A stretch of DNA of 12,799 bases from a virus: the UHGV virus genome UHGV-1846250; one strand, 5' to 3'. Both the position numbers and the translations under genes were made by a program. Positions 140-12,799 of the stretch are shown here, piece after piece. The first letter of the stretch is position 1, and each line of letters opens with the position of its first letter. The notes beneath the pieces are model-generated. The model ran no database searches and had not been told where the DNA came from. It saw nothing but the letters and a program-made list of their open reading frames with translations.

Positions 140-158
140 GGCGAGGCGGGGAAAGCAC
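140..158. other. cos: cos site: 19-nt cohesive-end sequence of P2/P4-type phages
   Basis: Exact string GGCGAGGCGGGGAAAGCAC at 140-158, which I recall as the P2/P4 19-nt 5' cohesive end; it sits about 170 bp from the end of the portal gene, as at the left end of P2. Confidence 0.6.
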
Positions 159-198
159 TGCGCGCTGGCGGTGGTGCTGATTTTATTTTTTCAGCGTC

Positions 199-287
199 TG
201 AGCGCGTCGTGAAGGCGCTTAGTCTGCCCGTTGAGGCGTTGGTGTGTCTGCGGGGTGTTTTGTGCGGTGGTGAGCGTGTGAGGGCGT
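199..287. repeat. Four copies of a TGAG(G)CG(C)GT-like motif (199-207 TGAGCGCGT, 232-239 TGAGGCGT, 271-278 TGAGCGTG, 279-287 TGAGGGCGT) in a G+T-skewed tract between cos and gene Q
   Basis: Read directly from the sequence; non-coding position between cos and the Q terminator makes a cosB-like terminase-binding role plausible. Confidence 0.3.
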
Positions 288-300
288 GATGACGGGGTGT

Positions 301-322
301 AAAAAAGCCGCCCGCAGGCGGC
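301..322 (-). terminator. Rho-independent terminator of the leftward P-Q packaging operon
   Basis: On the minus strand, just after the Q stop (328-330): GCCGCC-UGCG-GGCGGC perfect 6-bp GC stem with 4-nt loop (plus 307-322) followed by six U (plus 301-306 AAAAAA). Confidence 0.7.
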
Positions 323-327
323 GATGT

Positions 328-1362
328 TCAGCCGTTGTCAGTGTCCAGTGAGTAGTTTTTAAAGCGGATGACCTCCTGACCGAGCCAGCCGTTTATCTCG
401 CGGATCCTGTCCTGTAACGGGATAAGCTCATTGCGGACAAAGACCTTTGCCACTTTCTCAATATCACCCAGCGACCCGACGTTCTCCGGCTTGCCGCCCA
501 TCAACTGAAAGGGGATGCGGTGTGCGTCCAGCAGGTCAGCGGCGCTGGCTTTTTTGATATTAAAAAAATCGTCCTTCGTTGCCACTTCACTGAGCGGGAT
601 AATTTTAATGCCGTCAGCTTTCCCCTGCGGGGCATAGAGAAACAGGTTTTTAAAGTTGTTGCGGCCTTTCGACTTCACCATGTTTTCGCGAAGCATTTCG
701 ATATCGTTGCGATCCTGCACGGCATCGGTGACGTACATGATATATCCGGCATGAGCGCCGTTTTCGTAATACTTGCGGCGGAACAGCGTGGCCGACTCAT
801 TCAGCCAGGCAGAGTTAAGGGCGCTGAGATATTCCGGCAGGCCGTACAGCTCCTGATTAATATCCGGCTCCAGCAGGTGAAACACGGAGCCGGGCGCGAA
901 GGCTGTCGGCTCGTTGAAGGACGGCACCCACCAGTAAACATCCTCTTCCACACCACGGCGGGTATATTTTGCCGGTGAGGTTTCCAGTCTGATGACCTTA
1001 CCGGTGGTGCTGTAACGCTTTTCCAGAAACGCATTACCGAACACCAGAAAATCCAGCACAAAGCGGCTGAAATCCTGCTGGGAAAGCCACGGATGCGGGA
1101 TAAATGTCGAGGCCAGAATATTACGTTTGACGTAAATCGGTGAGCTGTGATGCACGGCAGCACGCAGGCTTTTTGCCAGACCGGTAAAGCTGACCGGTGG
1201 CTCATACCATCTGCCGTTACTGATGCACTCGACGTAATCCAGAATGTCACGGCGGTCGAGTACCGGCACCGGTTCGCCAAAGGTGAATGCCTCCATTTTC
1301 GGGGCGCTGGCGGTCATTTTTTTTGCCGCAGGTTGCGGTGTTTTCCCTTTTTTCTTGCTCAT
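328..1362 (-). CDS. Q: Portal protein (P2 gpQ-like), 344 aa
   Basis: ATG-initiated ORF of 344 aa, the same length as P2 gpQ as I recall it, with a recognisably P2 Q-like sequence; start shares one nucleotide with the stop of the upstream terminase gene (TGATG on minus strand). Confidence 0.93.
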   Translation of the reverse strand: MSKKKGKTPQPAAKKMTASAPKMEAFTFGEPVPVLDRRDILDYVECISNGRWYEPPVSFTGLAKSLRAAVHHSSPIYVKRNILASTFIPHPWLSQQDFSRFVLDFLVFGNAFLEKRYSTTGKVIRLETSPAKYTRRGVEEDVYWWVPSFNEPTAFAPGSVFHLLEPDINQELYGLPEYLSALNSAWLNESATLFRRKYYENGAHAGYIMYVTDAVQDRNDIEMLRENMVKSKGRNNFKNLFLYAPQGKADGIKIIPLSEVATKDDFFNIKKASAADLLDAHRIPFQLMGGKPENVGSLGDIEKVAKVFVRNELIPLQDRIREINGWLGQEVIRFKNYSLDTDNG

Positions 1363-3134
1363 CAGTAAAACTCCAGAATGGTGGATGTCAGCGGGGTGCT
1401 GATACCGGCGGTGAGTGGCTCATTTAACAGGGCGTGCATGGTCGCCCAGGCGAGGTCGGCGTGGCTGGCTTCCTCGCTGCGGCTGGCCTCATAGGTGGCG
1501 CTGCGTCCGCTGCTGGTCATGGTCTTGCGGATAGCCATAAACGAGCTGGTGATGTCGGTGGCGCTGACGTCATATTCCAGACAGCCACGGCGGATGACGT
1601 CTTTTGCCTTGAGCACCATTGCGGTTTTCATTTCCGGCGTGTAGCGGATGTCGCGCGCGGCGGGATAGAACGAGCGCACGAGCTGGAACACGCCGACACC
1701 GAGGCCGGTGGCATCAATACCGATGTATTCGACGTTGTATTTTTCGGTGAGTTTGCGGATGGATTCAGCCTGAGTGGCAAAGTCCATGCCTTTCCACTGG
1801 TGACGCTCAAGTATTCTGAATTTGCCACCGGCCACCACCGGCGGTGCCAGCACCACGCATCCGGCGCTGTCGCCACGGTGTGACGGGTCGTAACCAATCC
1901 ATACCGGGCGGGAGCCGAACGGATTGGCGGCAAACGGCGCATAGTCTTCCCATTCTTCCAGCGTGTCGACCATGCAGCGTTGCAGCTCCTCGAACGGGAA
2001 CACCGACGCCTTGTCGTCAACAAATTCACACATGAACAGGTTTTTAAAATCGTCGGCGCTGTTTTCACGTTTGAGCTGCTCAATGTCGAACAGCGTGCAG
2101 CCACCTTTCAGGGCGTCCTCAATGGTGACAATCTGCCGCCACTGGCCGTCCGCACAGAGAAGCCCACCGGCAAGGGCGTTATGACTGACGTCGATTTCCA
2201 CGCGTTCGGCGGCGCTGGCGCGTCCCCGGTTGAACAGTTCACCTGACCAGAACGGGTAGGCGTCGTGCGCCAGCGTGGACGGGGTGGAGAAATAGGTCGA
2301 GCGCAGGTGACTCTGTGAGGCCATACCTGATGCCACCTTACGCAGTACCTGAAAATTCGGGATCCAGAAAATCTCGTCGACGTACAGGTCGCCGTTATGG
2401 CTCTGTGCGGTGTTGGAGTTGGTGCCGAGAAAAATCAGTTTTGCGCCGTTATTGCCCAGGACAATCGGGTCACCGGTAAGGTCAACGTCAACCAGACGGG
2501 CAAAGGCGATGATGTATTCACGGAACACATACGCCTGCGTTTTACTGGCCGACAGAAAAATCTGGTTATGGCCGGTTTTCAGGGCGCGCAGCAGCGCCTC
2601 GCGGGAAAAATAAAACGTCGCGCCAATCTGGCGGGATTTCAGGATATCGCGGATGCGGTGCTCAAGCCCGGCGCGATACCAGTGCAACTGATAGTCGAAA
2701 GACTGCTCAAAGAAAATCTGCTCCAGCTTTTCGATGGCCTCGTCACTGAAAAAATTCTTTTTCGGTTTGCGACGCCCGCCTTTGTTGCGGTTAGCGACGT
2801 TCGGATTAAGGTCTGCCTCGTTGCCGGTCTGACTGTAACGGTTGACCCGTGCCAGTCGTTCAATCTGGCGTCCGAGCAGGTCAATTTCCTTGAAGTCACC
2901 GCCGGTTTTCTGCGGTTTGATGATGAGCTGGGTCAGCCGCGCTTCCAGACTCATTTCGACACGGCTGATGGGGGCAACGCTGTCCCAGCCGTCGCGCTGC
3001 TTCCAGCTCTGCACCGTCGGGCGTTTCATCTGCAACATGGCGGCAATCTGCGGCACGGAAAATCCCTGCCAGTACAGCAGCGCCGCCTGACGACGCGGGT
3101 CGTGTAAAAGAGTGGTGTCTGTGGTGATGGTCAT
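1362..3134 (-). CDS. P: Terminase large subunit / ATPase (P2 gpP-like), 590 aa from the ATG at 3134
   Basis: The track ORF begins at a TTG (3164); the in-frame ATG at 3134 (MTITTD...) has GAGG 7 nt upstream and gives 590 aa, matching P2 gpP. Translation shows a Walker-B-like LYVDE and a C-terminal nuclease region (WIGYDPS...IGIDATGLG). Confidence 0.92.
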   Translation of the reverse strand: MTITTDTTLLHDPRRQAALLYWQGFSVPQIAAMLQMKRPTVQSWKQRDGWDSVAPISRVEMSLEARLTQLIIKPQKTGGDFKEIDLLGRQIERLARVNRYSQTGNEADLNPNVANRNKGGRRKPKKNFFSDEAIEKLEQIFFEQSFDYQLHWYRAGLEHRIRDILKSRQIGATFYFSREALLRALKTGHNQIFLSASKTQAYVFREYIIAFARLVDVDLTGDPIVLGNNGAKLIFLGTNSNTAQSHNGDLYVDEIFWIPNFQVLRKVASGMASQSHLRSTYFSTPSTLAHDAYPFWSGELFNRGRASAAERVEIDVSHNALAGGLLCADGQWRQIVTIEDALKGGCTLFDIEQLKRENSADDFKNLFMCEFVDDKASVFPFEELQRCMVDTLEEWEDYAPFAANPFGSRPVWIGYDPSHRGDSAGCVVLAPPVVAGGKFRILERHQWKGMDFATQAESIRKLTEKYNVEYIGIDATGLGVGVFQLVRSFYPAARDIRYTPEMKTAMVLKAKDVIRRGCLEYDVSATDITSSFMAIRKTMTSSGRSATYEASRSEEASHADLAWATMHALLNEPLTAGISTPLTSTILEFY

Positions 3135-3307
3135 GAATACCTCGCCGTGATGAATACACGGCAAGGCTACTGAGTCGCGCCCCGCGATTCGCTAAGGTGC
3201 TGTTGTGTCAGTGATAAGCCATCCGGGACTGATGGCGGAGGATGCGCATCGTCGGGAAACTGATGCCGACATGTGACTCCTCTAATCACTATTCAGGACT
3301 CCTGACA
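3135..3307. promoter_or_regulatory. Divergent late-promoter region between the leftward P-Q and rightward O-to-S operons
   Basis: 173-bp non-coding gap between divergently oriented P and O genes, the position of the P2 late promoters PP and PO (Ogr-activated). Exact promoter elements not identified; TCTAAT at 3281-3286 is a possible -10 for the rightward operon. Confidence 0.45.
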
Positions 3308-4162
3308 ATGGCAAAAAAAGTCTCAAAATTCTTTCGTATCGGCGTTGAGGGTGACACCTGTGACGGGCGTGTCATCAGTGCGCAGGATATTCAGGAAATG
3401 GCCGAAACCTTTGACCCGCGTGTCTACGGTTGCCGCATTAACCTGGAACATCTGCGCGGCATCCTGCCTGACGGTATTTTTAAACGTTATGGCGATGTGG
3501 TCGAACTGAAGGCCGAAAAGATTGATGACGATTCGGCGCTGAAAGGCAAATGGGCGCTGTTTGCGAAAATCACCCCGACCGATGACCTTATCGCGATGAA
3601 CAAGGCCGCGCAGAAGGTCTACACCTCAATGGAAATTCAGCCGAACTTTGCCAACACCGGCAAATGTTATCTGGTGGGGCTGGCCGTCACCGATGACCCG
3701 GCAAGCCTCGGCACGGAATACCTGGAATTCTGCCGCACGGCAAAACACAACCCCCTGAACCGCTTCAAATTAAGCCCTGAAAACCTGATTTCAGTGGCAA
3801 CGCCTGTTGAGCTGGAATTTGAAGACCTGCCTGAAACCGTGTTCACCGCCCTGACCGAAAAGGTGAAATCCATTTTTGGCCGCAAACAGGCCAGCGATGA
3901 CGCCCGTCTGAATGACGTGCATGAAGCGGTGACCGCTGTTGCTGAACATGTGCAGGAAAAACTGAGCGCCACTGAGCAGCGCCTCGCTGAGATGGAAACC
4001 GCCTTTTCCGCACTTAAGCAGGAGGTGACTGACAGGGCGGATGAAACCAGCCAGGCATTCACCCGCCTGAAAAACAGTCTCGACCACACCGAAAGTCTGA
4101 CCCAGCAGCGCCGCAGCAAGGCCACCGGTGGTGGCGGTGACGCCCTGATGACGAACTGCTGA
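3308..4162 (+). CDS. O: Capsid scaffolding protein / prohead protease (P2 gpO-like), 284 aa
   Basis: Track ORF starts at 3242, but the ATG at 3308 (MAKKVSKFFRIGVEG...) gives 284 aa, matching P2 gpO; C-terminal half is rich in coiled-coil-like charged heptads. Confidence 0.9.
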   Translation: MAKKVSKFFRIGVEGDTCDGRVISAQDIQEMAETFDPRVYGCRINLEHLRGILPDGIFKRYGDVVELKAEKIDDDSALKGKWALFAKITPTDDLIAMNKAAQKVYTSMEIQPNFANTGKCYLVGLAVTDDPASLGTEYLEFCRTAKHNPLNRFKLSPENLISVATPVELEFEDLPETVFTALTEKVKSIFGRKQASDDARLNDVHEAVTAVAEHVQEKLSATEQRLAEMETAFSALKQEVTDRADETSQAFTRLKNSLDHTESLTQQRRSKATGGGGDALMTNC

Positions 4163-4220
4163 CCGGCGTCAGTCAGTCCGGGAAAACCTTCACGATTAAC
4201 CCTTAATTTCAGGAAAAACT

Positions 4221-5294
4221 ATGCGCCAGGAAACCCGCTTTAAATTTAATGCCTACCTGTCCCGTGTTGCCGAACTGAACGGCATCGACGCCGGTGATGT
4301 GTCGAAAAAATTCACCGTTGAACCGTCGGTCACCCAGACCCTGATGAACACCATGCAGGAGTCCTCTGACTTTCTGACCCGCATCAACATTGTGCCGGTC
4401 AGCGAAATGAAAGGGGAAAAAATTGGTATTGGTGTCACCGGCTCCATCGCCAGCACCACCGACACCGCCGGTGGCACCGAGCGTCAGCCGAAGGACTTCT
4501 CGAAGCTGGCGTCTAACAAGTACGAATGCGACCAGATTAACTTCGATTTTTATATCCGCTACAAAACGCTGGACCTGTGGGCGCGTTATCAGGATTTCCA
4601 GCTCCGTATCCGTAACGCCATTATTAAACGCCAGTCCCTTGATTTAATCATGGCCGGTTTTAACGGCGTGAAGCGTGCCGAAACCTCTGACCGCAGCAGT
4701 AATCCGATGCTACAGGATGTGGCGGTCGGCTGGCTGCAGAAATACCGCACTGAAGCACCGGCGCGCGTGATGAGCAAGGTCACTGACGAGGAAGGGCACA
4801 CCACCTCTGAGGTTATCCGCGTGGGTAAGGGCGGTGATTATGCCAGCCTTGATGCACTGGTGATGGATGCGACCAACAACCTGATTGAGCCGTGGTATCA
4901 GGAAGACCCTGACCTGGTGGTGATTGTGGGACGTCAGCTACTGGCGGACAAGTATTTTCCCATCGTCAACAAGGAGCAGGACAACAGCGAAATGCTGGCC
5001 GCTGACGTCATCATCAGCCAGAAACGCATCGGTAACCTGCCGGCGGTACGCGTCCCGTACTTCCCGGCGGATGCGATGCTCATCACGAAGCTGGAAAACC
5101 TGTCCATCTACTACATGGATGACAGCCATCGCCGCGTGATTGAGGAAAACCCGAAACTCGACCGCGTGGAGAACTACGAGTCAATGAACATTGATTACGT
5201 GGTGGAGGACTACGCCGCCGGTTGTCTGGTGGAAAAAATTAAGGTCGGTGATTTTTCCACACCGGCTAAGGCGACCGCAGAGCCGGGAGCGTAA
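4221..5294 (+). CDS. N: Major capsid protein (P2 gpN-like), 357 aa
   Basis: 357 aa, the length of P2 gpN, with P2 N-like sequence; AGGA upstream of the ATG; follows the scaffold gene as in P2. Confidence 0.93.
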   Translation: MRQETRFKFNAYLSRVAELNGIDAGDVSKKFTVEPSVTQTLMNTMQESSDFLTRINIVPVSEMKGEKIGIGVTGSIASTTDTAGGTERQPKDFSKLASNKYECDQINFDFYIRYKTLDLWARYQDFQLRIRNAIIKRQSLDLIMAGFNGVKRAETSDRSSNPMLQDVAVGWLQKYRTEAPARVMSKVTDEEGHTTSEVIRVGKGGDYASLDALVMDATNNLIEPWYQEDPDLVVIVGRQLLADKYFPIVNKEQDNSEMLAADVIISQKRIGNLPAVRVPYFPADAMLITKLENLSIYYMDDSHRRVIEENPKLDRVENYESMNIDYVVEDYAAGCLVEKIKVGDFSTPAKATAEPGA

Positions 5295-5297
5295 CCG

Positions 5298-6041
5298 ATG
5301 ACGAGTCCCGCACAGCGCCACATGATGCGGGTCTCGGCAGCGATGACCGCGCAGCGGGAAGCCGCCCCGCTGCGACATGCAACTGTCTATGAGCAGATGC
5401 TGGTCAAGCTGGCCGCAGACCAGCGCACACTGAAAGCAATTTATTCAAAAGAGCTGAAGGCCGCGAAAAAACGCGAACTGCTGCCGTTCTGGTTGCCGTG
5501 GGTGAACGGCGTGCTGGAGCAGGGCAAAGGTGCACAGGATGACATTCTGATGACGGTCATGCTGTGGCGTCTGGATACCGGCGATATTGCCGGTGCGCTG
5601 GAGATTGCCCGTTATGCCCTGAAGTACGGTCTGACCATGCCGGGTAAACACCGTCGCACCCCGCCGTACATGTTCACCGAGGAGGTGGCGCTCGCGGCCA
5701 TGCGCGCCCACGCTGCCGGTGAGTCTGTGGATCCCCGCCTGCTGACGGACACCCTCGAACTGACCGCCACGGCTGACATGCCTGATGAAGTGCGCGCAAA
5801 GCTGCACAAAATCACCGGTCTGTTTCTGCGTGACGCTGGTGATGCCGCAGGGGCGCTGGCGCACCTGCAACGTGCGACACAGCTCGACTGTCAGGCAGGC
5901 GTCAAAAAAGAGATTGAACGACTGGAGCGGGAGCTGAAACCGAAGCCGGAGCCACAGCCAAAAGCGGCCACCTGCGCCCCGCGTAAGACCCGGAGCGTGA
6001 CACCGGCAAAACGTGGACGCCCGAAAAAGAAAGCCAGTTAA
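5298..6041 (+). CDS. M: Terminase small / endonuclease subunit (P2 gpM-like), 247 aa
   Basis: 247 aa as in P2 gpM; starts 3 nt after the N stop; basic Pro/Lys-rich C-terminal tail ending KRGRPKKKAS. Confidence 0.9.
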   Translation: MTSPAQRHMMRVSAAMTAQREAAPLRHATVYEQMLVKLAADQRTLKAIYSKELKAAKKRELLPFWLPWVNGVLEQGKGAQDDILMTVMLWRLDTGDIAGALEIARYALKYGLTMPGKHRRTPPYMFTEEVALAAMRAHAAGESVDPRLLTDTLELTATADMPDEVRAKLHKITGLFLRDAGDAAGALAHLQRATQLDCQAGVKKEIERLERELKPKPEPQPKAATCAPRKTRSVTPAKRGRPKKKAS

Positions 6042-6140
6042 CAACCGAATGCGCCCCGCGCCAGGGCGGCACGCCGGTCAGTGAGGGTGAATCACCTGAC
6101 ACTGTACCGGCGTCCACCGCCCGACTTTTCAGAGGTAGTC

Positions 6141-6650
6141 ATGATGACGCTGATTATTCCGCGAAAGGAGGCTCCCGTGTCCGGTGAGGGTACGGTGGTC
6201 ATCCCGCAACCGGCAGGCGACGAGCCGGTGATTAAAAACACGTTCTTTTTTCCCGATATCGACCCGAAGCGCGTCCGGGAACGTATGCGCCTTGAGCAGA
6301 CCGTCGCCCCTGCCCGTCTGCGTGAGGCCATCAAGTCAGGCATGGCTGAAACGAATGCGGAGCTGTACGAGTACCGCGAACAGAAAATTGCCGCCGGTTT
6401 TACGCGTCTGGCGGACGTCCCGGCGGACGACATCGACGGTGAAAGCATCAAAGTTTTTTACTACGAGCGCGCCGTGTGTGCGATGGCGACCGCGTCGCTT
6501 TATGAGCGTTATCGCGGCGTGGATGCCAGTGCGAAAGGCGACAAGAAGGCCGACAGCATTGACAGCACCATTGATGAGCTGTGGCGGGATATGCGCTGGG
6601 CAGTGGCGCGCATCCAGGACAAGCCGCGCTGCATCGTGAGTCAAATCTGA
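6141..6650 (+). CDS. L: Head completion / stabilisation protein (P2 gpL-like), 169 aa
   Basis: Track ORF starts upstream at 6081, but the ATG at 6141 (MMTLIIPRK...) has GAGG 5 nt upstream and gives 169 aa, matching P2 gpL. Confidence 0.88.
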   Translation: MMTLIIPRKEAPVSGEGTVVIPQPAGDEPVIKNTFFFPDIDPKRVRERMRLEQTVAPARLREAIKSGMAETNAELYEYREQKIAAGFTRLADVPADDIDGESIKVFYYERAVCAMATASLYERYRGVDASAKGDKKADSIDSTIDELWRDMRWAVARIQDKPRCIVSQI

Positions 6651-6853
6651 TGAAGACCTTTGCGCTACAGGGCGACACGCTCGACGCCATTTGTGTCCGG
6701 TATTACGGGCGCACTGAGGGCGTGGTCGAAGCCGTGCTCGCCGCAAATCCGGGACTGGCTGAACTGGGTGCGGTGCTGCCACACGGCACCGCCGTCGAAC
6801 TGCCCGACGTTCAGACCGCGCCCGTGGCTGAAACTGTCAATCTGTGGGAGTAA
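6650..6853 (+). CDS. X: Tail protein X (P2 gpX-like, LysM-like), 67 aa
   Basis: ATG at 6650 overlaps the L stop (TGATG); 67 aa (MKTFALQGDTLDAICVRYYG...) matches P2 gpX. The track's longer ORF from 6581 is an out-of-frame overlap with L. Confidence 0.85.
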   Translation: MKTFALQGDTLDAICVRYYGRTEGVVEAVLAANPGLAELGAVLPHGTAVELPDVQTAPVAETVNLWE

Positions 6854-6856
6854 CGC

Positions 6857-7138
6857 ATGACAGCAGAAGAAAAAAGCGTCCTGTCGCTTTTCATGATTGG
6901 GGTGCTGATTGTTGTCGGCAAGGTGCTTGCCGGTGGTGAACCCATCACCCCGCGTCTGTTTATCGGACGCATGTTGCTCGGTGGTTTTGTCTCGATGGTT
7001 GCCGGTGTTGTTCTGGTGCAGTTTCCTGACCTGTCACTGCCTGCGGTGTGCGGCATCGGCTCCATGCTGGGTATCGCCGGTTATCAGGTGATTGAGATTG
7101 CCATTCAGCGCCGCTTTAAGGGCAGGGGGAAACCGTAA
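6857..7138 (+). CDS. Y: Holin (P2 gpY-like), 93 aa
   Basis: 93 aa with hydrophobic transmembrane segments and a basic C-terminal tail (RRFKGRGKP); sits directly upstream of the endolysin. Confidence 0.85.
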   Translation: MTAEEKSVLSLFMIGVLIVVGKVLAGGEPITPRLFIGRMLLGGFVSMVAGVVLVQFPDLSLPAVCGIGSMLGIAGYQVIEIAIQRRFKGRGKP

Positions 7139-7635
7139 TGCCGGTAATTAACACGCATCAGAATATCGCCGCCTTTCTCGACATGCTGGCCGTGTCCGAA
7201 GGGACGGCGAACCATCCGCTGACGAAAAACCGTGGCTATGACGTGATAGTCACCGGACTGGACGGGAAGCCGGAAATTTTCACCGACTACAGTGACCACC
7301 CGTTCGCACATGGCCGACCGGCGAAGGTGTTTAACCGTCGCGGTGAAAAATCCACGGCCTCCGGTCGCTATCAGCAGCTTTACCTGTTCTGGCCGCATTA
7401 CCGCAAACAGCTTGCCCTGCCGGATTTCAGTCCGTTGTCACAGGACAGACTCGCCATTCAGTTGATCCGCGAACGCGGTGCACTGGATGACATCCGGGCG
7501 GGACGCATTGAGCGCGCCATTTCACGCTGTCGCAATATCTGGGCGTCCCTGCCGGGTGCCGGTTACGGTCAGCGTGAGCATTCACTGGAAAAACTGGTCA
7601 CCGTCTGGCGTACCGCTGGCGGCGTACCGGCTTAA
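7138..7635 (+). CDS. K: Endolysin, lambda R-like lytic transglycosylase (P2 gpK-like), 165 aa
   Basis: Motifs shared with lambda R are visible: AFLDMLAVSEGT (catalytic Glu region), GYDVIV, FTDYSDHP, GRYQ, FSP-SQD, NIWASLPGAGYGQ-EH. Start overlaps the Y stop (TAATG). Confidence 0.93.
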   Translation: MPVINTHQNIAAFLDMLAVSEGTANHPLTKNRGYDVIVTGLDGKPEIFTDYSDHPFAHGRPAKVFNRRGEKSTASGRYQQLYLFWPHYRKQLALPDFSPLSQDRLAIQLIRERGALDDIRAGRIERAISRCRNIWASLPGAGYGQREHSLEKLVTVWRTAGGVPA

Positions 7636-7649
7636 ACGGAGTAAACACC

Positions 7650-8075
7650 ATGAAGAAATTATCTCTTTCACTGATGCTGAACGTGTCGCTGGCGCTGATG
7701 CTGGCACTGTCCCTGATTTACCCGCAGAGCGTGGCCGTCAGTTTTGTCGCCGCCTGGGCGATTCTGGCGACGGTTATCTGTGCGGTTGCCGGTGGTGTCG
7801 GGGTGTATGCCACTGAGTATGTGCTGGAACGCTACGGGCGGGAGCTGCCGCCGGAATCGCTGGCTGTGAAGATTGTCACGTCGCTGTTTTTGCAGCCGGT
7901 GACGTGGTGCAGACGGGCGGTGGGTCTGGTGGTGATGGTGGCGACGTTTATCTCGCTGGTCGCTGCCGGGTGGATTTTTACCGCGCTGATTTATCTTGTG
8001 GCGTCGCTGTTTTTCCGGCTGATACGTACGGCCTGTCGTCAGCGTCTTGAGGGGCGGGAACCATGTCAAAGCTGA
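7650..8075 (+). CDS. lysA: LysA-like lysis-timing membrane protein, 141 aa
   Basis: 141 aa with about four hydrophobic transmembrane segments; same position and length as P2 lysA. Confidence 0.8.
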   Translation: MKKLSLSLMLNVSLALMLALSLIYPQSVAVSFVAAWAILATVICAVAGGVGVYATEYVLERYGRELPPESLAVKIVTSLFLQPVTWCRRAVGLVVMVATFISLVAAGWIFTALIYLVASLFFRLIRTACRQRLEGREPCQS

Positions 8076-8488
8076 TGATTGTGCTGGTTGTGTTGTTATC
8101 ACTGGCGGTGGCCGGTCTGTTTCTGGCGAAGCATGAAAACGCCAGCCTGCGCGCCTCGCTGGACAGGGCGAACAACGTCGCCAGCGGTCAGCAGACGACC
8201 ATCACCATGCTGAAAAATCAGCTTCATGTTGCCCTTACCAGGGCAGACAAAAACGAGCTGGCGCAGGTGGCACTGCGTCAGGAACTGGAGAACGCCGCGA
8301 AGCGTGAAGCACAGCGCGAGAAAACCATCACGAGGTTACTGAATGAAAACGAGGATTTTCGCCGCTGGTATGGCGCTGACCTGCCTGATGCTGTGCGCCG
8401 GTTGCACCAGCGTCCGACCTGCACTGACGCCAGTGATTGTCGCCAACGCCTGCCCGAAAGTGAGCCTTTGCCCGATGCCGGGCAGTGA
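8063..8488 (+). CDS. lysB: LysB-like inner-membrane spanin (Rz-like), 141 aa
   Basis: N-terminal transmembrane segment (MSKLMIVLVVLLSLAVAGLFLA) followed by a charged, coiled-coil-like periplasmic domain; P2 lysB length. Confidence 0.8.
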   Translation: MSKLMIVLVVLLSLAVAGLFLAKHENASLRASLDRANNVASGQQTTITMLKNQLHVALTRADKNELAQVALRQELENAAKREAQREKTITRLLNENEDFRRWYGADLPDAVRRLHQRPTCTDASDCRQRLPESEPLPDAGQ

Positions 8489-8633
8489 CCCGGAGACGAA
8501 CGGTGATTTAAGTGCCGATATCCGGCAGCTTGAGAACGCGCTGGCACGCTGTGCCAGCCAGGTAAAAATGATTAAACACTGTCAGGACGAAAACGATGCT
8601 CAAACCCGACAGCCTGCGCAGGGCGCTGACTGA
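8343..8633 (+). CDS. lysC: LysC-like outer-membrane lipoprotein spanin (Rz1-like), 96 aa
   Basis: Starts inside lysB in the +1 frame and runs past its end; lipoprotein signal peptide with lipobox (LMLCAGC); GAGG 7 nt upstream of the ATG. Confidence 0.75.
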   Translation: MKTRIFAAGMALTCLMLCAGCTSVRPALTPVIVANACPKVSLCPMPGSDPETNGDLSADIRQLENALARCASQVKMIKHCQDENDAQTRQPAQGAD

Positions 8634-9063
8634 CGCCGTCACGGTGCTGAAAACCAGTCCCGAGATGCTGCGGATATTCGTGGATAACGGGAGTATTGCC
8701 TCCACACTGGCGACGTCTATGTCATTCGAAAAGCGTTACACGCTCAATGTGATTGTGACCGACTTTACCGGTGATTTTGACCTGCTCATTGTGCCGGTGC
8801 TGGCGTGGCTGCGGGAAAATCAGCCCGACATCATGACCACCGACGAAGGCCAGAAAAAGGGCTTCACGTTTTATGCAGACATCAACAATGACAGCAGCTT
8901 TGATATCAGCATCAGCCTGATGCTGACCGAGCGCACGCTGGTCAGTGAGGTTGACGGCGCGCTGCATGTGAAGAATATCCCGGAACCTCCGCCGCCGGAG
9001 CCGGTTACCCGCCCGATGGAGCTGTATATCAATGGCGAACTGGTGAGCAAGTGGGATGAATGA
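8596..9063 (+). CDS. R: Tail completion protein (P2 gpR-like), 155 aa
   Basis: 155 aa as in P2 gpR, with P2 R-like sequence; position after the lysis cassette. Confidence 0.87.
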   Translation: MLKPDSLRRALTDAVTVLKTSPEMLRIFVDNGSIASTLATSMSFEKRYTLNVIVTDFTGDFDLLIVPVLAWLRENQPDIMTTDEGQKKGFTFYADINNDSSFDISISLMLTERTLVSEVDGALHVKNIPEPPPPEPVTRPMELYINGELVSKWDE

Positions 9064-9508
9064 GTTTAAGCGTTTTGAAGACCGGCTGACCGGACTGATT
9101 GAGTCGCTGTCACCGTCAGGGCGTCGGCGACTGAGCGCCGAACTGGCGAAACGTCTGCGTCAGAGTCAGCAGCGTCGGGTGATGGCACAGAAAGCCCCGG
9201 ACGGCACACCCTACGCGCCACGCCAGCAGCAGAGCGCCAGAAAAAAGACCGGTCGTGTTAAGCGAAAAATGTTTGCGAAACTTATCACCAGTCGTTTTTT
9301 GCATATCCGCGCCAGCCCGGAACAGGCATCAATGGAGTTTTACGGCGGGAAGTCACCGAAAATCGCCAGCGTGCATCAGTTCGGTCTGTCGGAAGAAACC
9401 CGGAAAGACGGTAAGAAAATTGATTATCCGGCGCGTCCTCTGCTCGGCTTTACCGGTGAGGATGTGCAGATGATTGAAGAGATTATTCTGGCTCACCTCG
9501 ACCGTTAG
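9056..9508 (+). CDS. S: Tail completion protein (P2 gpS-like), 150 aa
   Basis: 150 aa as in P2 gpS; start overlaps the R stop by 8 nt (ATGAATGA). Confidence 0.87.
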   Translation: MNEFKRFEDRLTGLIESLSPSGRRRLSAELAKRLRQSQQRRVMAQKAPDGTPYAPRQQQSARKKTGRVKRKMFAKLITSRFLHIRASPEQASMEFYGGKSPKIASVHQFGLSEETRKDGKKIDYPARPLLGFTGEDVQMIEEIILAHLDR

Positions 9509-9540
9509 TTGTGCCATTCCTGACACCTCATCGTCACATT

Positions 9541-9562
9541 GCCGCCGGTATGACCCGGCGGC
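9541..9562 (+). other. GC-rich hairpin in the S-V intergenic region (GCCGCCGG - tatgac - CCGGCGGC)
   Basis: Perfect 8-bp inverted repeat with a 6-nt loop, read directly; no U-run follows, so not a canonical intrinsic terminator. Confidence 0.4.
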
Positions 9563-9574
9563 ATCCTTCCCGTT

Positions 9575-10210
9575 ATGAACACTCTCGCAAATATTCAGGA
9601 ACTCGCGCGCGCACTGCGCAACATGATCCGCACCGGCATTATCGTCGAAACCGACCTTAACGCCGGTCGCTGCCGTGTGCAGACCGGCGGCATGTGCACC
9701 GACTGGCTTCAGTGGCTGACCCATCGCGCCGGACGTTCGCGCATATGGTGGGCACCTTCCGTGGGGGAGCAGGTGCTGATTCTGGCCGTGGGCGGTGAAC
9801 TCGACACGGCGTTCGTTCTGCCGGGGATTTATTCCGGCGATAACCCCGCGCCGTCTGCGTCGGCGGATGCCCTGTACATCCGTTTCCCTGACGGGGCGGT
9901 GATTGAGTATGAACCCGAAACCAGTGCACTCACGGTAAGCGGAATTAAAACGGCCAGCGTGACGGCTTCTGATTCTGTTACTGCCACGGTGCCGGTGGTC
10001 ATGGTGAAAGCATCAACCCGCGTCACCCTGGACACACCGGAGGTGGTCTGCACCAACAGGCTGATTACCGGCACGCTGGAAGTGCAGAAGGGCGGGACGA
10101 TGCGCGGCAACATTGAACACACCGGCGGTGAACTCTCATCAAACGGTAAGGTACTGCATACCCATAAACACCCCGGCGACAGCGGCGGCACAACCGGGAG
10201 TCCTTTATGA
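9575..10210 (+). CDS. V: Baseplate central spike protein (P2 gpV-like), 211 aa
   Basis: 211 aa as in P2 gpV; C-terminal His-x-His-x-His motif (VLHTHKHPGD) as in spike-tip metal-binding apex domains. Confidence 0.9.
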   Translation: MNTLANIQELARALRNMIRTGIIVETDLNAGRCRVQTGGMCTDWLQWLTHRAGRSRIWWAPSVGEQVLILAVGGELDTAFVLPGIYSGDNPAPSASADALYIRFPDGAVIEYEPETSALTVSGIKTASVTASDSVTATVPVVMVKASTRVTLDTPEVVCTNRLITGTLEVQKGGTMRGNIEHTGGELSSNGKVLHTHKHPGDSGGTTGSPL

Positions 10211-10554
10211 CAGCGCGTTATCTCGGAATGAATCGCAGTGATGGCCTGACTGTCACTGACCTTGAGCATATCAGCCAGAGTATCGGCGATATCCTGCGCA
10301 CACCGGTCGGCTCACGGGTGATGCGTCGTGATTACGGCTCGTTGCTGGCATCAATGATTGACCAGCCGCAGACCCCGGCGCTTGAGTTGCAGATTAAGGT
10401 CGCCTGTTACATGGCGGTGCTGAAATGGGAACCCCGCGTCACCCTGTCATCCGTCACCACTGAGCGCAGTTTTGACGGGCGAATGACGGTCACGTTAACC
10501 GGCCAGCACAACGACACCGGCCAGCCACTTTCATTAACCATCCCTGTGAGTTGA
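10207..10554 (+). CDS. W: Baseplate wedge protein (P2 gpW-like, T4 gp25-like), 115 aa
   Basis: 115 aa as in P2 gpW; start overlaps the V stop (ATGA). Confidence 0.9.
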   Translation: MTARYLGMNRSDGLTVTDLEHISQSIGDILRTPVGSRVMRRDYGSLLASMIDQPQTPALELQIKVACYMAVLKWEPRVTLSSVTTERSFDGRMTVTLTGQHNDTGQPLSLTIPVS

Positions 10555-10558
10555 AACC

Positions 10559-11467
10559 ATGCCGATTATCGACCTGAACCAGCTACCCGCACCGGATGTG
10601 GTCGAGGAGCTGGACTTTGAAAGCATTCTCGCTGAACGCAAGGCGACACTGATTTCCCTTTACCCGGAAGATCAGCAGGAGGCGGTCGCCCGTACCCTGA
10701 CACTGGAATCTGAGCCTCTCGTCAAACTGCTGGAAGAAAATGCTTATCGTGAGCTTATCTGGCGTCAGCGTGTGAATGAGGCCGCACGGGCGGTGATGCT
10801 GGCCTGTGCCGCCGGTAATGACCTTGATGTGATTGGTGCCAATTACAACACCACACGCCTGATTATCACCCCGGCAGATGATTCGACCATCCCGCCGACA
10901 CCGGCAGTGATGGAGTCTGACACCGATTATCGTCTGCGTATTCAGCAGGCGTTTGAGGGCTTAAGCGTCGCCGGGTCGGTGGGTGCCTATCAGTATCATG
11001 GTCGCAGTGCCGACGGGCGTGTCGCCGATATTTCTGTCACCAGTCCGTCTCCTGCCTGCGTCACCATCTCCGTGCTGTCACGTGAAAATAACGGTGTCGC
11101 ATCCGAAGACCTGCTGGCTGTGGTGCGTAACGCCCTTAATGGCGAGGACGTCAGGCCGGTGGCCGACCGCGTGACCGTGCAGTCTGCCGCCATTGTTGAA
11201 TACCAGATAAACGCCACGCTTTACCTTTACCCTGGTCCCGAAAGCGAACCCATCCGCGCTGCTGCCGTGAAAAAACTGGAAGCGTACATCACGGCACAGC
11301 ACCGGCTTGGGCGCGACATCCGTCTGTCTGCCATTTATGCCGCTTTGCATGTGGAAGGCGTGCAGCGTGTCGAACTGACTGCACCTCTGGCTGACATTGT
11401 GCTCAACAGTACGCAGGCGTCTTTCTGTACCGAATACCGCGTCGTGACCGGAGGCTCGGATGAGTGA
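10559..11467 (+). CDS. J: Baseplate wedge protein (P2 gpJ-like, T4 gp6-like), 302 aa
   Basis: 302 aa as in P2 gpJ, with P2 J-like sequence; conserved position after W. Confidence 0.9.
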   Translation: MPIIDLNQLPAPDVVEELDFESILAERKATLISLYPEDQQEAVARTLTLESEPLVKLLEENAYRELIWRQRVNEAARAVMLACAAGNDLDVIGANYNTTRLIITPADDSTIPPTPAVMESDTDYRLRIQQAFEGLSVAGSVGAYQYHGRSADGRVADISVTSPSPACVTISVLSRENNGVASEDLLAVVRNALNGEDVRPVADRVTVQSAAIVEYQINATLYLYPGPESEPIRAAAVKKLEAYITAQHRLGRDIRLSAIYAALHVEGVQRVELTAPLADIVLNSTQASFCTEYRVVTGGSDE

Positions 11468-12071
11468 TTCGCGCCTGCTGCCGACCGGCTCATCACCGCT
11501 TGAAGTCGCCGCCGCAAGAGCCTGTGCGGAAATTGAAAAAACGCCGGTCAGTATTCGTGAACTGTGGAACCCGGACACCTGCCCGGGAAATCTGCTGCCG
11601 TGGCTGGCGTGGTCATTTTCGGTTGACCGCTGGGATGATAAGTGGCCGGAAGCGACAAAACGCGCTGTTATCCGCGATGCGTATTTCATTCACTGCCATA
11701 AGGGCACTATTGGTGCGATTCGCCGTGTGGTGGAGCCACTCGGCTATCTGATTGAGGTGAGGGAGTGGTGGCAGCTCAACGAGGAGCCGGGGACGTTCCG
11801 TATCGTTGTCGGCGTGCTTGAGCAGGGTATTACCGAGGAAATGTATCAGGAGCTGGAGCGCCTCGTTGCTGATGCAAAACCGGCAAGCCGCCATCTGACG
11901 GGATTGGCTATCAGTTTAAGTACAACCGGCAACATTTTTGCCGGTGCGGGATGCTATCACGGCGACGCCCTGACGGTTTATCCCTACACCCCGGAGGCCA
12001 TTATTGTCGGAGGGGATTATTTCCCGGCCTCGGCCATTCATTTAATTGATAACCTGAGAGTAAACGCATGA
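11460..12071 (+). CDS. I: Baseplate / tail-fibre attachment protein (P2 gpI-like), 203 aa
   Basis: N-terminal region is P2 gpI-like; start overlaps the J stop by 8 nt (ATGAGTGA). At 203 aa it is longer than the 176 aa I recall for P2 gpI. Confidence 0.85.
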   Translation: MSDSRLLPTGSSPLEVAAARACAEIEKTPVSIRELWNPDTCPGNLLPWLAWSFSVDRWDDKWPEATKRAVIRDAYFIHCHKGTIGAIRRVVEPLGYLIEVREWWQLNEEPGTFRIVVGVLEQGITEEMYQELERLVADAKPASRHLTGLAISLSTTGNIFAGAGCYHGDALTVYPYTPEAIIVGGDYFPASAIHLIDNLRVNA

Positions 12072-12799
12072 CAGTGAAATACTACGCCATTCTGACTAAT
12101 CAGGGCGCAGCACGGCTGGCTAACGCGACGATGCTCGGCAGTAAGCTGAATCTGACGCAAATGGCCGTTGGTGATGCGAATGGTGTCTTGCCGACACCAG
12201 ACCCGGCACAGACAAAACTGATTAACCAGAAACGCATCGCGCCGCTGAATCTTCTGAGTGTTGACCCGAACAACCAGAGCCAGATTATTGCGGAGCAAAT
12301 CATCCCTGAGAACGAGGGCGGATTCTGGATCCGTGAGATTGGGCTTTATGATGATGAAGGCGTACTCATTGCGGTGGCGAACTGCCCGGAAACGTACAAA
12401 CCGCAGTTGCAGGAAGGCAGTGGTCGTACCCAGACTATCCGCATGATTCTGGTTGTCACGAATACCGAAGCCATCACGCTGAAAATCGACCCGTCGGTGG
12501 TACTGGCGACCCGTAAATACGTGGATGATGAAGTCCTGGAATTAAAGCTGTATGTGGATGACCAGATGAGAAACCACATTGCCGCACAGGATCCTCATAC
12601 CCAGTATGCACAGAAACATAATCCGACATTTACCGGAGAACCAAAAGCGCCGACGCCTGCCGCAGGAAATAACACCACGCGGATTGCGACCACTGCGTTT
12701 GTACAGGCGGCACTGACGGCCCTTATTAATGGTGCGCCAGCCACGCTGGACACGTTGAAAGAAATAGCTGCAGCCATAAACAATGACCCGAAATTCAGC
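12068..12799 (+). CDS. H: Tail fibre protein (P2 gpH-like), N-terminal 244 codons; 3'-truncated by the window edge
   Basis: ATG at 12068 overlaps the I stop (ATGA); frame stays open to the last base of the window, so the ORF track does not list it. Translation (MTVKYYAILTNQGAARLANATMLG...GGFWIREIGLYDDEGVLIAVAN...NNTTRIATTAFVQAAL) has the conserved N-terminal architecture of P2 H-type fibres. Confidence 0.85.
   Translation, partial: MTVKYYAILTNQGAARLANATMLGSKLNLTQMAVGDANGVLPTPDPAQTKLINQKRIAPLNLLSVDPNNQSQIIAEQIIPENEGGFWIREIGLYDDEGVLIAVANCPETYKPQLQEGSGRTQTIRMILVVTNTEAITLKIDPSVVLATRKYVDDEVLELKLYVDDQMRNHIAAQDPHTQYAQKHNPTFTGEPKAPTPAAGNNTTRIATTAFVQAALTALINGAPATLDTLKEIAAAINNDPKFS

Follow-up and report, generated by a model that had tools for sequence, protein, structure and literature searches.

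The window analysed here, a stretch of viral DNA of 12,799 nucleotides, carries a late-gene cluster closely resembling that of phage P2, and its right-hand end raises the question of whether a host-range module has been exchanged there, where such an exchange begins and what it would mean for receptor recognition. A preliminary description had claimed that the proteins from Q to J have the lengths of those in P2, that gpI is longer and the start of the tail fibre diverged, and that recombination, with its junction either within gene I or past it, had swapped the host-range module, so that the phage probably uses a different receptor.

The P2-type backbone and the two-part gene I

The genes of the window are arranged in the order Q-P / O-N-M-L-X-Y-K-lysA-lysB-lysC-R-S-V-W-J-I-H, which is that of the Peduovirus (P2-like) late-gene cluster, except that orf30, located between S and V in P2, is absent. 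The proteins from Q to J are 344, 590, 284, 357, 247, 169, 67, 93, 165, 141, 141, 96, 155, 150, 211, 115 and 302 amino acids long, and all 17 have the same length in P2 (NC_001895), as had been claimed. Comparison of the DNA with P2 gave 97.7% identity over positions 140-9510 (approximately 9.4 kb) and 95.3% over 9575-11896 (2.3 kb), an overall likeness of 95-98% at the nucleotide level, gene order and gene sizes being shared throughout Q-J. Gene J (10559..11467, plus strand), encoding the 302-residue P2-type baseplate wedge protein, was 92-100% identical to P2 in 60-nt windows and was not swapped. A scan of the window with Rfam gave no matches, and an antisense open reading frame of 203 amino acids (11078-11689, minus strand) was taken as a chance frame within genes J and I.

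Gene I (11460-12071, plus strand) is flanked by the gpJ homologue and by the fibre gene and encodes a protein of 203 amino acids, compared with 176 for the gpI of P2 (NC_001895, 12193-12723), in agreement with the lengths given in the preliminary description. The Tail_P2_I family (PF09684) was matched by residues 7-143 with a score of 186.6 bits (gathering cut-off, 20.6), placing the product in the wedge-protein family. Alignment with P2 gpI by BLASTP gave 81% identity over 175 residues, with the differences clustered after residue 98 and no alignment beyond residue 175. The pairwise comparison suggested earlier revealed an identity that is not uniform, and the maximum chi-square method placed the break inside gene I, at position 11750 (codon 97). 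The value obtained there was 244, with mismatches amounting to 3.7% on the left side of the break and 36% on the right side. This junction is far beyond chance. The same breakpoint recurred against three P2-type references, P2 itself and the loci L094 and L097, which include prophages of E. albertii and E. ruysiae, and the density of mismatches to such references rises about eightfold at this single point.

The two sides of the junction have different closest relatives. Codons 1-97 (11460..11749, plus strand) encode the P2-type core of the wedge (triplex) protein, and gpI residues 1-98 share 96% identity with P2 but only 67-69% with a group of prophages, L085-L091. The following junction zone, codons ~97-146 (11750..11896, plus strand), can still be aligned with P2 yet belongs to the other lineage, being approximately 70% identical to P2 in both nucleotides and amino acids compared with 85-87% amino acid identity to L085-L091; for residues 99-145 the figures are 70% and 85-87%. 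The contrast is greater for residues 146-203, with 26% identity to P2 and 83-84% to L085-L091, and it continues into the fibre gene, where H residues 1-152 are 51% identical to P2 and 89-92% to L085-L091. Alignments to P2-type phages obtained with megablast and blastn stop at 11893-11896, and the DNA after 11896 gave no alignment to P2 at all. Phage 186 was considered as a donor and rejected, as its I homologue is the short form of 176 amino acids and no breakpoint was found against the window.

The fibre adaptor and its gpI tether

Gene H starts at 12068 and overlaps the stop codon of gene I in an ATGA motif (12068-12071), an arrangement for translational coupling; 244 of its codons are visible. 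Codons 1-152 (12068..12523, plus strand) encode the N-terminal baseplate adaptor domain, identified by PF12571 over residues 1-150 with 211.7 bits (cut-off, 23), as in gpH-type fibres. Codons 153-244 (12524..12799, plus strand) form part of a constant shaft that runs off the end of the contig. The H protein of P2 has 669 amino acids, and BLASTP gave 43% identity over 222 residues for the N-terminus together with a second match in which the shaft motifs at residues 175-244 were 47% identical to P2 H 246-315; the N-terminus is thus diverged with its framework motifs kept, as originally described. Other prophages of the window type are 97-100% identical to the window up to approximately 12520 and 30-50% identical thereafter, revealing a second junction at H codon ~152 by which the module is bounded on the right. 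A candidate recombinant at H codon ~43 (E. coli GPEC1446, hit H121) was set aside, its fibre gene being truncated by an IS21-family insertion.

The C-terminal tether of gpI, residues 153-203 (11916..12071 on the plus strand, stop codon included), is 51 residues long compared with 24 in P2. It holds a 27-residue extension, residues 177-203 (from nucleotide 11988), that P2 lacks and that is conserved across 65 long-type homologues, with H194 in 95%, I196 in 97% and D197 in 98%. In a sample of 82 homologues, ordered by how similar they are to the window gpI and thereby biased towards long forms, the long form (199-210 amino acids) was found 65 times and the short form six times; long-form proteins were spread over Enterobacterales, Aeromonas, Pseudomonas and Halomonas. 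The ATGA overlap between I and H was present in 56 of the 65 long-type loci; in the short type the two genes are separated by 10-14 nt. The wedge protein of pyocin R2, PA0619 (PDB 6U5B; its fibre is PA0620/Prf15), is clearly homologous to gpI (E = 2e-40, residues 3-176), with the short form of 177 amino acids and no 27-residue extension, and is part of a tailocin rather than a phage.

A cryo-EM study of P2 describes a wedge of one gpI copy and two copies of gpJ, in which the C-terminus of gpI, from R153 onwards, is a flexible tether that holds the gpH fibre trimer and joins the gpH adaptor via a rope-like interface; the contact was described from low-resolution density and AlphaFold models, for the short-tether form of P2 only (bioRxiv 10.64898/2026.09.14.750843). 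By analogy with this preprint, a physical fit between tether and adaptor would be expected in the window phage as well. Across 81 loci from different species the gpI tail and the H adaptor co-vary with r = 0.89, and with r = 0.82 when the gpI N-terminus is controlled for (partial Mantel p ≤ 0.001), values that are inflated by the shared ancestry of the loci; this co-variation lends indirect support to a gpI C-terminus that would hold the fibre in the window phage too. A window-like adaptor accompanied long-type gpI in 65 of 65 cases, and a P2-like adaptor accompanied the 176-residue short type in six of six.

Relatives and origin of the docking module

The arrangement seen in the window is common, has been sequenced before and is known biology. 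Five deposited phages, pro483 (KR073661), 'P2' of E. coli O157:H43 T22 (KC618326, Peduovirus magyaro), S164, vB_EcoM-640R3 and Salmonella phage MET_P1_103_31, combine a P2-type backbone with a 203-residue gpI and the H N-terminus of the window, and are 96.5-97.8% identical to it in nucleotides from V to H with no break at the junction. These records differ from the window by approximately 2-3% of nucleotides and go on to include the complete fibre, a pair of chaperone genes in opposite orientations and an invertase. P2, whose gpI and gpH belong to the domain families found in the window proteins (Tail_P2_I and the PF12571 adaptor), differs in its 176-residue gpI with a 24-residue tether, a 10-nt gap between I and H, an adaptor 51% identical to that of the window, and a fixed H-G pair with no invertase. 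Of 5426 complete E. coli genomes, 569 carry the window allele and 635 carry that of P2; the window allele is not unusual and is about as frequent in this species as the P2 one. None of the fetched loci exceeded approximately 98% identity to the window over long stretches.

Outside the Peduovirus backbone, the imported piece has its nearest relatives in Eganvirus EtG (Erwinia phage EtG) and the L085-L091 prophages. These have a 202-residue gpI ending in the same tail, with H coupled to it through ATGA, and share 83-92% amino acid and approximately 80% nucleotide identity over gpI 99-203 and H 1-152. They differ from the window in the gpI N-terminus (67-69%) and in J (approximately 70-75% nucleotide identity), and their H shaft is unrelated after codon ~152.

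The right end of the window is very probably an alternative fibre-docking allele recombined onto a P2-type late-gene backbone, with an invertible tip segment downstream, as its relatives suggest. Homologous recombination in gene I at about codon 97 would have swapped the second half of gpI, and the contiguous adaptor domain of H (residues 1-152) would have been replaced in the same exchange by sequence of a kind present in other Peduoviridae, among them Eganvirus EtG and prophages of Scandinavium, Pantoea, Citrobacter, Enterobacter and Kluyvera. The N-terminal part of gpI, which is predicted to be seated in the wedge with two gpJ, stays P2-type and the baseplate would thus be unchanged, while the tether and the adaptor that it holds would move together and so keep their mutual fit. 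The discordant identities on the two sides of the junction suggest that transfer was into the P2-type backbone.

The same discordance weighs against an account without recombination, in which rapid evolution of gene I and of the first part of H has led to a gradual divergence from P2. Among the structural genes of Peduovirus, those of the tail fibre show the lowest conservation, and the fall in identity between 11610 and 11900 appears graded in 60-nt windows; however, the eightfold jump in mismatches occurs at one point against three independent references, the right part is 83-92% identical in amino acids to prophages whose left part is only 67-69% identical, and both alleles occur on backbones 95-98% identical in E. 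coli. Gradual divergence is therefore extremely improbable. Hardly any more credible is an assembly artefact in which two co-occurring P2-like prophages were merged inside gene I. The window ends where its source contig does, NODE_1842_length_14051_cov_2.71 in ENA, which was located with the gpI sequence and belongs to a metagenome (sample ERZ1303479), and the 2.7x coverage together with related prophages in one sample would favour false joins. A query with the portal protein, aimed at the left end of this contig, yielded other genomes only. The junction is nevertheless continuous at 97-98% identity in the isolates pro483, KC618326, MET_P1_103_31 and S164, and complete chromosomes of E. coli, as well as 80 IMG/VR loci, have the same arrangement.

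The exchange might also have run in the opposite direction, with the long-tether module ancestral to the backbone and P2 itself having gained the short-tether gpI and H module. The greater abundance of the long form (65 to 6 among 82 homologues) and its taxonomic breadth agree with this, as do the about equal frequencies of the two alleles in E. coli, but the homologues were ranked by likeness to the window protein, which favours long forms. P2-type loci are moreover concordant across gpI and H (0.90, 0.89, 0.81 and 0.83 in Phytobacter; 0.79, 0.89, 0.61 and 0.65 in Rahnella), whereas the window type is discordant (0.68 compared with 0.85-0.92), and the reverse direction is considered unlikely.

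The fibre tip and the invertible segment of relatives

The preliminary claim of a swapped host-range module thus stands for the swap and fails for its receptor-binding part, as the piece exchanged within the window, gpI ~97-203 with the PF12571 adaptor of H, is the docking part of the module. The receptor-binding tip and its chaperone lie beyond the end of the contig, and a different receptor cannot be read from the window. Extending the sequence rightward to the fibre C-terminus and gene G, as had been recommended, was precluded by the source contig stopping exactly at the window end, and the exact 39-mer from this end had no match in IMG/VR. A search of the window for the crossover site (up to three mismatches), invertase, fibre tip and chaperone found none of them, because the contig ends first, and for the same reason the reading of an invertible segment draws on relatives.

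In these relatives the constant part of H runs to residue 269, and a 26-bp crossover site lies at +83 to +108 nt past the position of the window end. Relatives at 97-98% identity continue with H, tfa, an inverted tfa', an inverted H' tip and an invertase, and opposed cassettes of tip and chaperone were seen in L002, L003, Cartapus and many IMG/VR loci. The invertase contains Resolvase and HTH_7 domains and matches Gin (PDB 3UJ3) at E = 7e-95, while the crossover sites resemble Mu gix. The relatives share with the Mu G segment (Gin), the P1 C segment (Cin) and the e14 P segment (Pin) a 26-bp site with an AAACC-NN-GGTTT core inside the fibre reading frame, opposed tip and chaperone cassettes and an adjacent serine invertase, all of which would fall outside the window. 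The likeness to Mu is confined to this switch of the relatives: a Mu origin of the docking module was rejected, as Mu gp48 and Mu S have no similarity to the gpI and H of the window. Inversion has been shown experimentally in P2-like prophages of E. coli, in EPEC E2348/69 (PMC4272514), and seven IMG/VR contigs that end inside the crossover site give a hint of it.

By analogy with these relatives, the constant shaft that follows the adaptor would end at a Gin/Cin-type crossover site inside H, beyond which alternative tip and chaperone cassettes would be flipped by a Gin-like serine invertase. The tip of the window phage is probably one of two alternatives on such an invertible segment, which the phage itself would carry, and is likely to be of a non-P2 type. 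A fixed, non-invertible fibre with a P2-like tip, leaving the host range the same despite the different N-terminus, has a low probability. Such a fibre would be in keeping with the six of 32 relatives with enough downstream sequence that have no intact invertase, and with two relatives whose tips are 39-51% identical to the C-terminus of P2 H and are accompanied by a G-like chaperone. The other 26 relatives, however, have a full Gin-like invertase, and those two are the only ones with a tip similar to that of P2 H among 57 carrying the constant region; the remaining 55 tips have no detectable similarity to it and form at least 32 clusters at 70% identity. With the docking module exchanged and an invertible segment downstream, the sequence immediately beyond the contig end would determine host range and probably switch it.

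P2-like phages with mosaic and invertible tail-fibre genes have been reported previously, the allele is carried by deposited phages and by roughly one in ten complete E. coli genomes, and the value of the locus as a discovery is small. The two natural breakpoints, in gpI (codon ~97) and in H (codon ~152), mark exchange points that spare the baseplate and are relevant to the retargeting of phages and tailocins; pyocins have been retargeted with a conserved N-terminal fibre anchor and an exchangeable C-terminal receptor-binding part (PMC11762384). The dimorphism of long and short gpI tethers provides a concrete test of the P2 fibre-anchoring model. It is possible, and proposed here tentatively, that the long-gpI extension (P178, G185, H194-x-I196-D197, R200) is an extra element of the fibre socket, that P2-family baseplates comprise two mutually incompatible docking systems, and that gpI ~97 to H ~152 is the minimal cassette converting one to the other. 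The short-tether system may then include P2, 186 and pyocin R2, and the long-tether system the majority of the gammaproteobacterial P2-like elements sampled. If this were true, the cassette would open the pool of invertase-shuffled fibre tips to the P2 backbone.

The P2-like backbone and the junction within gene I

The window comprises 12.8 kb of the late-gene region of a P2-like (Peduovirus) element, with genes Q and P on the minus strand and O, N, M, L, X, Y, K, lysA, lysB, lysC, R, S, V, W, J and I on the plus strand, followed by codons 1–244 of the tail-fibre gene H. The DNA was 97.7% identical to P2 (NC_001895) at positions 140–9510 and 95.3% identical at 9575–11896, and every gene from Q through J retained its P2 protein length, as the preliminary description had stated. 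Over the final 9,340 nt retrieved from ENA metagenome contig ERZ1303479 NODE_1842 (14,051 nt, coverage 2.7), the window and the contig were identical. The contig ends exactly at the window end (12799), so that gene H is cut by the assembly and not by biology.

Several other features of the backbone were observed. The S–V intergenic region is 66 nt (9509–9574) and lacks orf30, whereas P2 carries this non-essential 786 nt gene here on the opposite strand. The P2 cohesive-end sequence GGCGAGGCGGGGAAAGCAC was located at 140–158 (P2 position 1 corresponding to 140), internal to the contig, so what was sequenced was either a prophage or DNA in circular or concatemeric form rather than the end of a packaged linear genome. 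Of 5426 complete E. coli genomes, strain 181.1 alone matched positions 1–~100, the match in most others beginning at ~99–105. The counterpart in strain 181.1 is the region upstream of a DUF262 gene, behind which come a HEPN-like nuclease and then a cytosine methyltransferase, at the old/tin defence hotspot by the portal gene. Genes J and I are overlapped on the minus strand by an ORF that is likewise exactly 203 aa long (11078–11689); nothing marks it as a gene, and an open frame of this kind has probably arisen by chance in the GC-rich coding sequence.

Gene I (11460–12071) encodes the baseplate wedge protein gpI with 203 aa, compared with 176 aa in the annotated P2 record, where H has 669 aa; the gpI lengths given in the preliminary description were thus correct. 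The two gpI proteins were 81% identical across 175 residues, with nearly all differences C-terminal to residue 98 and nothing alignable past residue 175. The 244 visible residues of H, which begins at 12068, were 43% identical to P2 H (51% for the adaptor domain alone), in keeping with the diverged N-terminus first reported. In 60-nt windows the identity to P2 was 0.90–1.00 (mostly 0.95–1.00) up to ~11670, 0.87 at 11675–11734, ~70% at 11735–11914 and random beyond. A maximum chi-square scan placed the breakpoint at 11750, gpI codon 97, with 3.7% mismatch to the left and 29–36% to the right. The same breakpoint was recovered against two further P2-type prophages (E. albertii, E. ruysiae), while the scan gave none against the uniformly distant phage 186. 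Megablast alignments to ~30 other P2-type phages (L-413C, fiAA91-ss, pro147 and others) all ended at 11893–11896. The recombination junction proposed inside or after gene I therefore lies within the gene.

Origin and extent of the imported segment

The segments were compared across 80 loci, with bacterial assemblies taken at one genome per species. Residues 1–98 of gpI were 96% identical to P2 and 67–69% identical to the prophages that, outside the Peduovirus backbone, are closest to the imported piece (L085–L091), found in Scandinavium, Pantoea, Citrobacter, Erwinia tracheiphila, Enterobacter and Kluyvera. The corresponding values were 70% and 85–87% for gpI 99–145, 26% and 83–84% for gpI 146–203, and 51% and 89–92% for H 1–152. 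The cultured counterpart of these prophages is Eganvirus EtG, with a gpI of 202 aa and an overlapping H. Several IMG/VR prophages with 98–99% identical gpI were 97–100% identical to the window until ~12520 and 30–50% thereafter. This position corresponds to H codon ~152, where the Pfam PF12571 adaptor domain (residues 1–150) ends. Given natural junctions on both sides, the module unit is gpI ~97–203 plus H 1–152.

Gradual divergence from P2 without recombination is excluded, as the breakpoint is abrupt and reproducible and the identities are discordant. An assembly chimera is likewise excluded, since isolated phages and complete chromosomes show the identical join without a break. In the P2-type loci of Phytobacter and Rahnella divergence was concordant along gpI and H, which argues that the window type is the chimera; the transfer was thus probably into the P2-type backbone, and the reverse direction appears unlikely.

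Probable docking of the tail fibre to the wedge

gpI is homologous to the pyocin R2 wedge protein PA0619 (E = 2e-40). The P2 wedge is reported to consist of two gpJ and one gpI, the C-terminus of which, unresolved from R153, joins the trimeric gpH adaptor via a rope-like beta-sheet interface (2026 cryo-EM preprint on P2). As this C-terminus would hold the adaptor, the swapped segment is most likely the fibre socket. The gpI C-terminal tail, or tether, spans 51 residues (153–203) in the window compared with 24 in P2. Conservation of H194, I196 and D197 was 95–98% in 65 long-type homologues (199–210 aa), which come from Enterobacterales, Xenorhabdus, Photorhabdus, Aeromonas, Pseudomonas and Halomonas, indicating that the 27 residues absent from P2 are not junk. 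An ATGA overlap joins I and H in 56 of the 65 long-type loci, compared with a gap of 10–14 nt in all six short-type loci. Identities of the gpI tail and H adaptor were correlated (r = 0.89; partial r given the gpI N-terminus 0.82; partial Mantel p ≤ 0.001), values and significance that shared ancestry inflates. Among the loci compared, short tethers were never combined with window-like adaptors, and the reverse combination was likewise absent. Tether and adaptor would have to fit each other and hence recombine as one unit, while the gpI N-terminus would remain matched to the resident gpJ.

Longer homologues of gpI were also observed. In Serratia spp. (L148, L149, L151, L153, L155 and L157; locus ~3995–7290) the homologue is a single 1097-aa ORF followed by an H-like gene, so that the wedge protein carries a giant extension or fusion at its C-terminus. 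Homologues of 230–233 aa occur in some Xenorhabdus (L128, L129, L136) and in Serratia microhaemolytica (L146).

Fibre tips beyond the window in relatives, and their distribution

The relatives pro483, 'P2' of O157:H43 T22, MET_P1_103_31, S164 and E. coli 181.1 are 97–98% identical across the junction and share a downstream layout: a complete H (445–499 aa), a chaperone, an opposite-strand second chaperone and fibre-tip fragment, and a serine recombinase matching Gin (PDB 3UJ3, E = 7e-95). Their H is constant up to residue 269 (98–99.6% identity) and then divergent. A 26-bp site, TTCTYGCATACCTTGGTTTRGGAGAA, resembling Mu gix, lies 83–108 nt past the window end in the relatives (equivalent to 12882–12907; 18882–18907 in relative L003), and its inverted partner adjoins the invertase gene. 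In the phage 186 record, the fibre gene bears an annotation for a relic Mu-like crossover site. Among IMG/VR contigs of the window's prophage type, seven end within the 26-bp crossover site and five more ≤85 nt after it; the window contig (2.7x coverage) stops 83 nt short of the position that the site has in relatives. Contig ends inside a crossover site are what an invertible segment usually leaves in an assembly, and these ends suggest assembly breaks from inversion heterogeneity. Among relatives extending at least 4 kb downstream, 26 of 32 had a full-length invertase.

At least 32 fibre-tip clusters (70% identity) were found on the constant H region (aa 1–269) among 57 prophages (L004–L083 set, H beyond residue 281). 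Tips like that of P2 H occurred in only two of the 57 (L052 and L076), with G-like chaperones. The preliminary description had proposed a swapped host-range module and a different receptor. A module was indeed swapped, but what can be seen to have been exchanged is the docking module, not the receptor-binding part. A non-P2 receptor is likely, a reading drawn from the tips of the relatives, as the tip itself lies outside the window; a fixed P2-like tip would be improbable for this phage.

Two relatives were arranged differently. In L056 a second complete H-like gene (~7940–10095, minus strand; N-terminus 73% identical) is inverted, faces the first and replaces the invertase, and may reflect a rearrangement or two abutting elements. 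In E. coli GPEC1446 (L171, 7–2500) the IS21-family element ISEc12 truncates a window-type fibre gene at ~H codon 43, with invertible cassettes and the invertase still present downstream.

Pyocin retargeting uses the same design of an anchor with an exchangeable tip (PMC11762384). Inversion has been measured in E. coli P2-like prophages by sequencing and PCR (PMC4272514), and exchanges of the tail fibre at this P2 locus, accompanied by an invertase, are already catalogued (bioRxiv 10.1101/2024.10.15.618418). The gpI tail and H start (11900–12799) were covered over at least 80% of their length in 569 of the 5426 complete E. coli genomes, and the equivalent P2 segment in 635. Because the inversion is measured, the swaps catalogued and the allele frequent in E. 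coli, the finding is a correct reading of a well-known mosaicism, of which the allele is already in databases.
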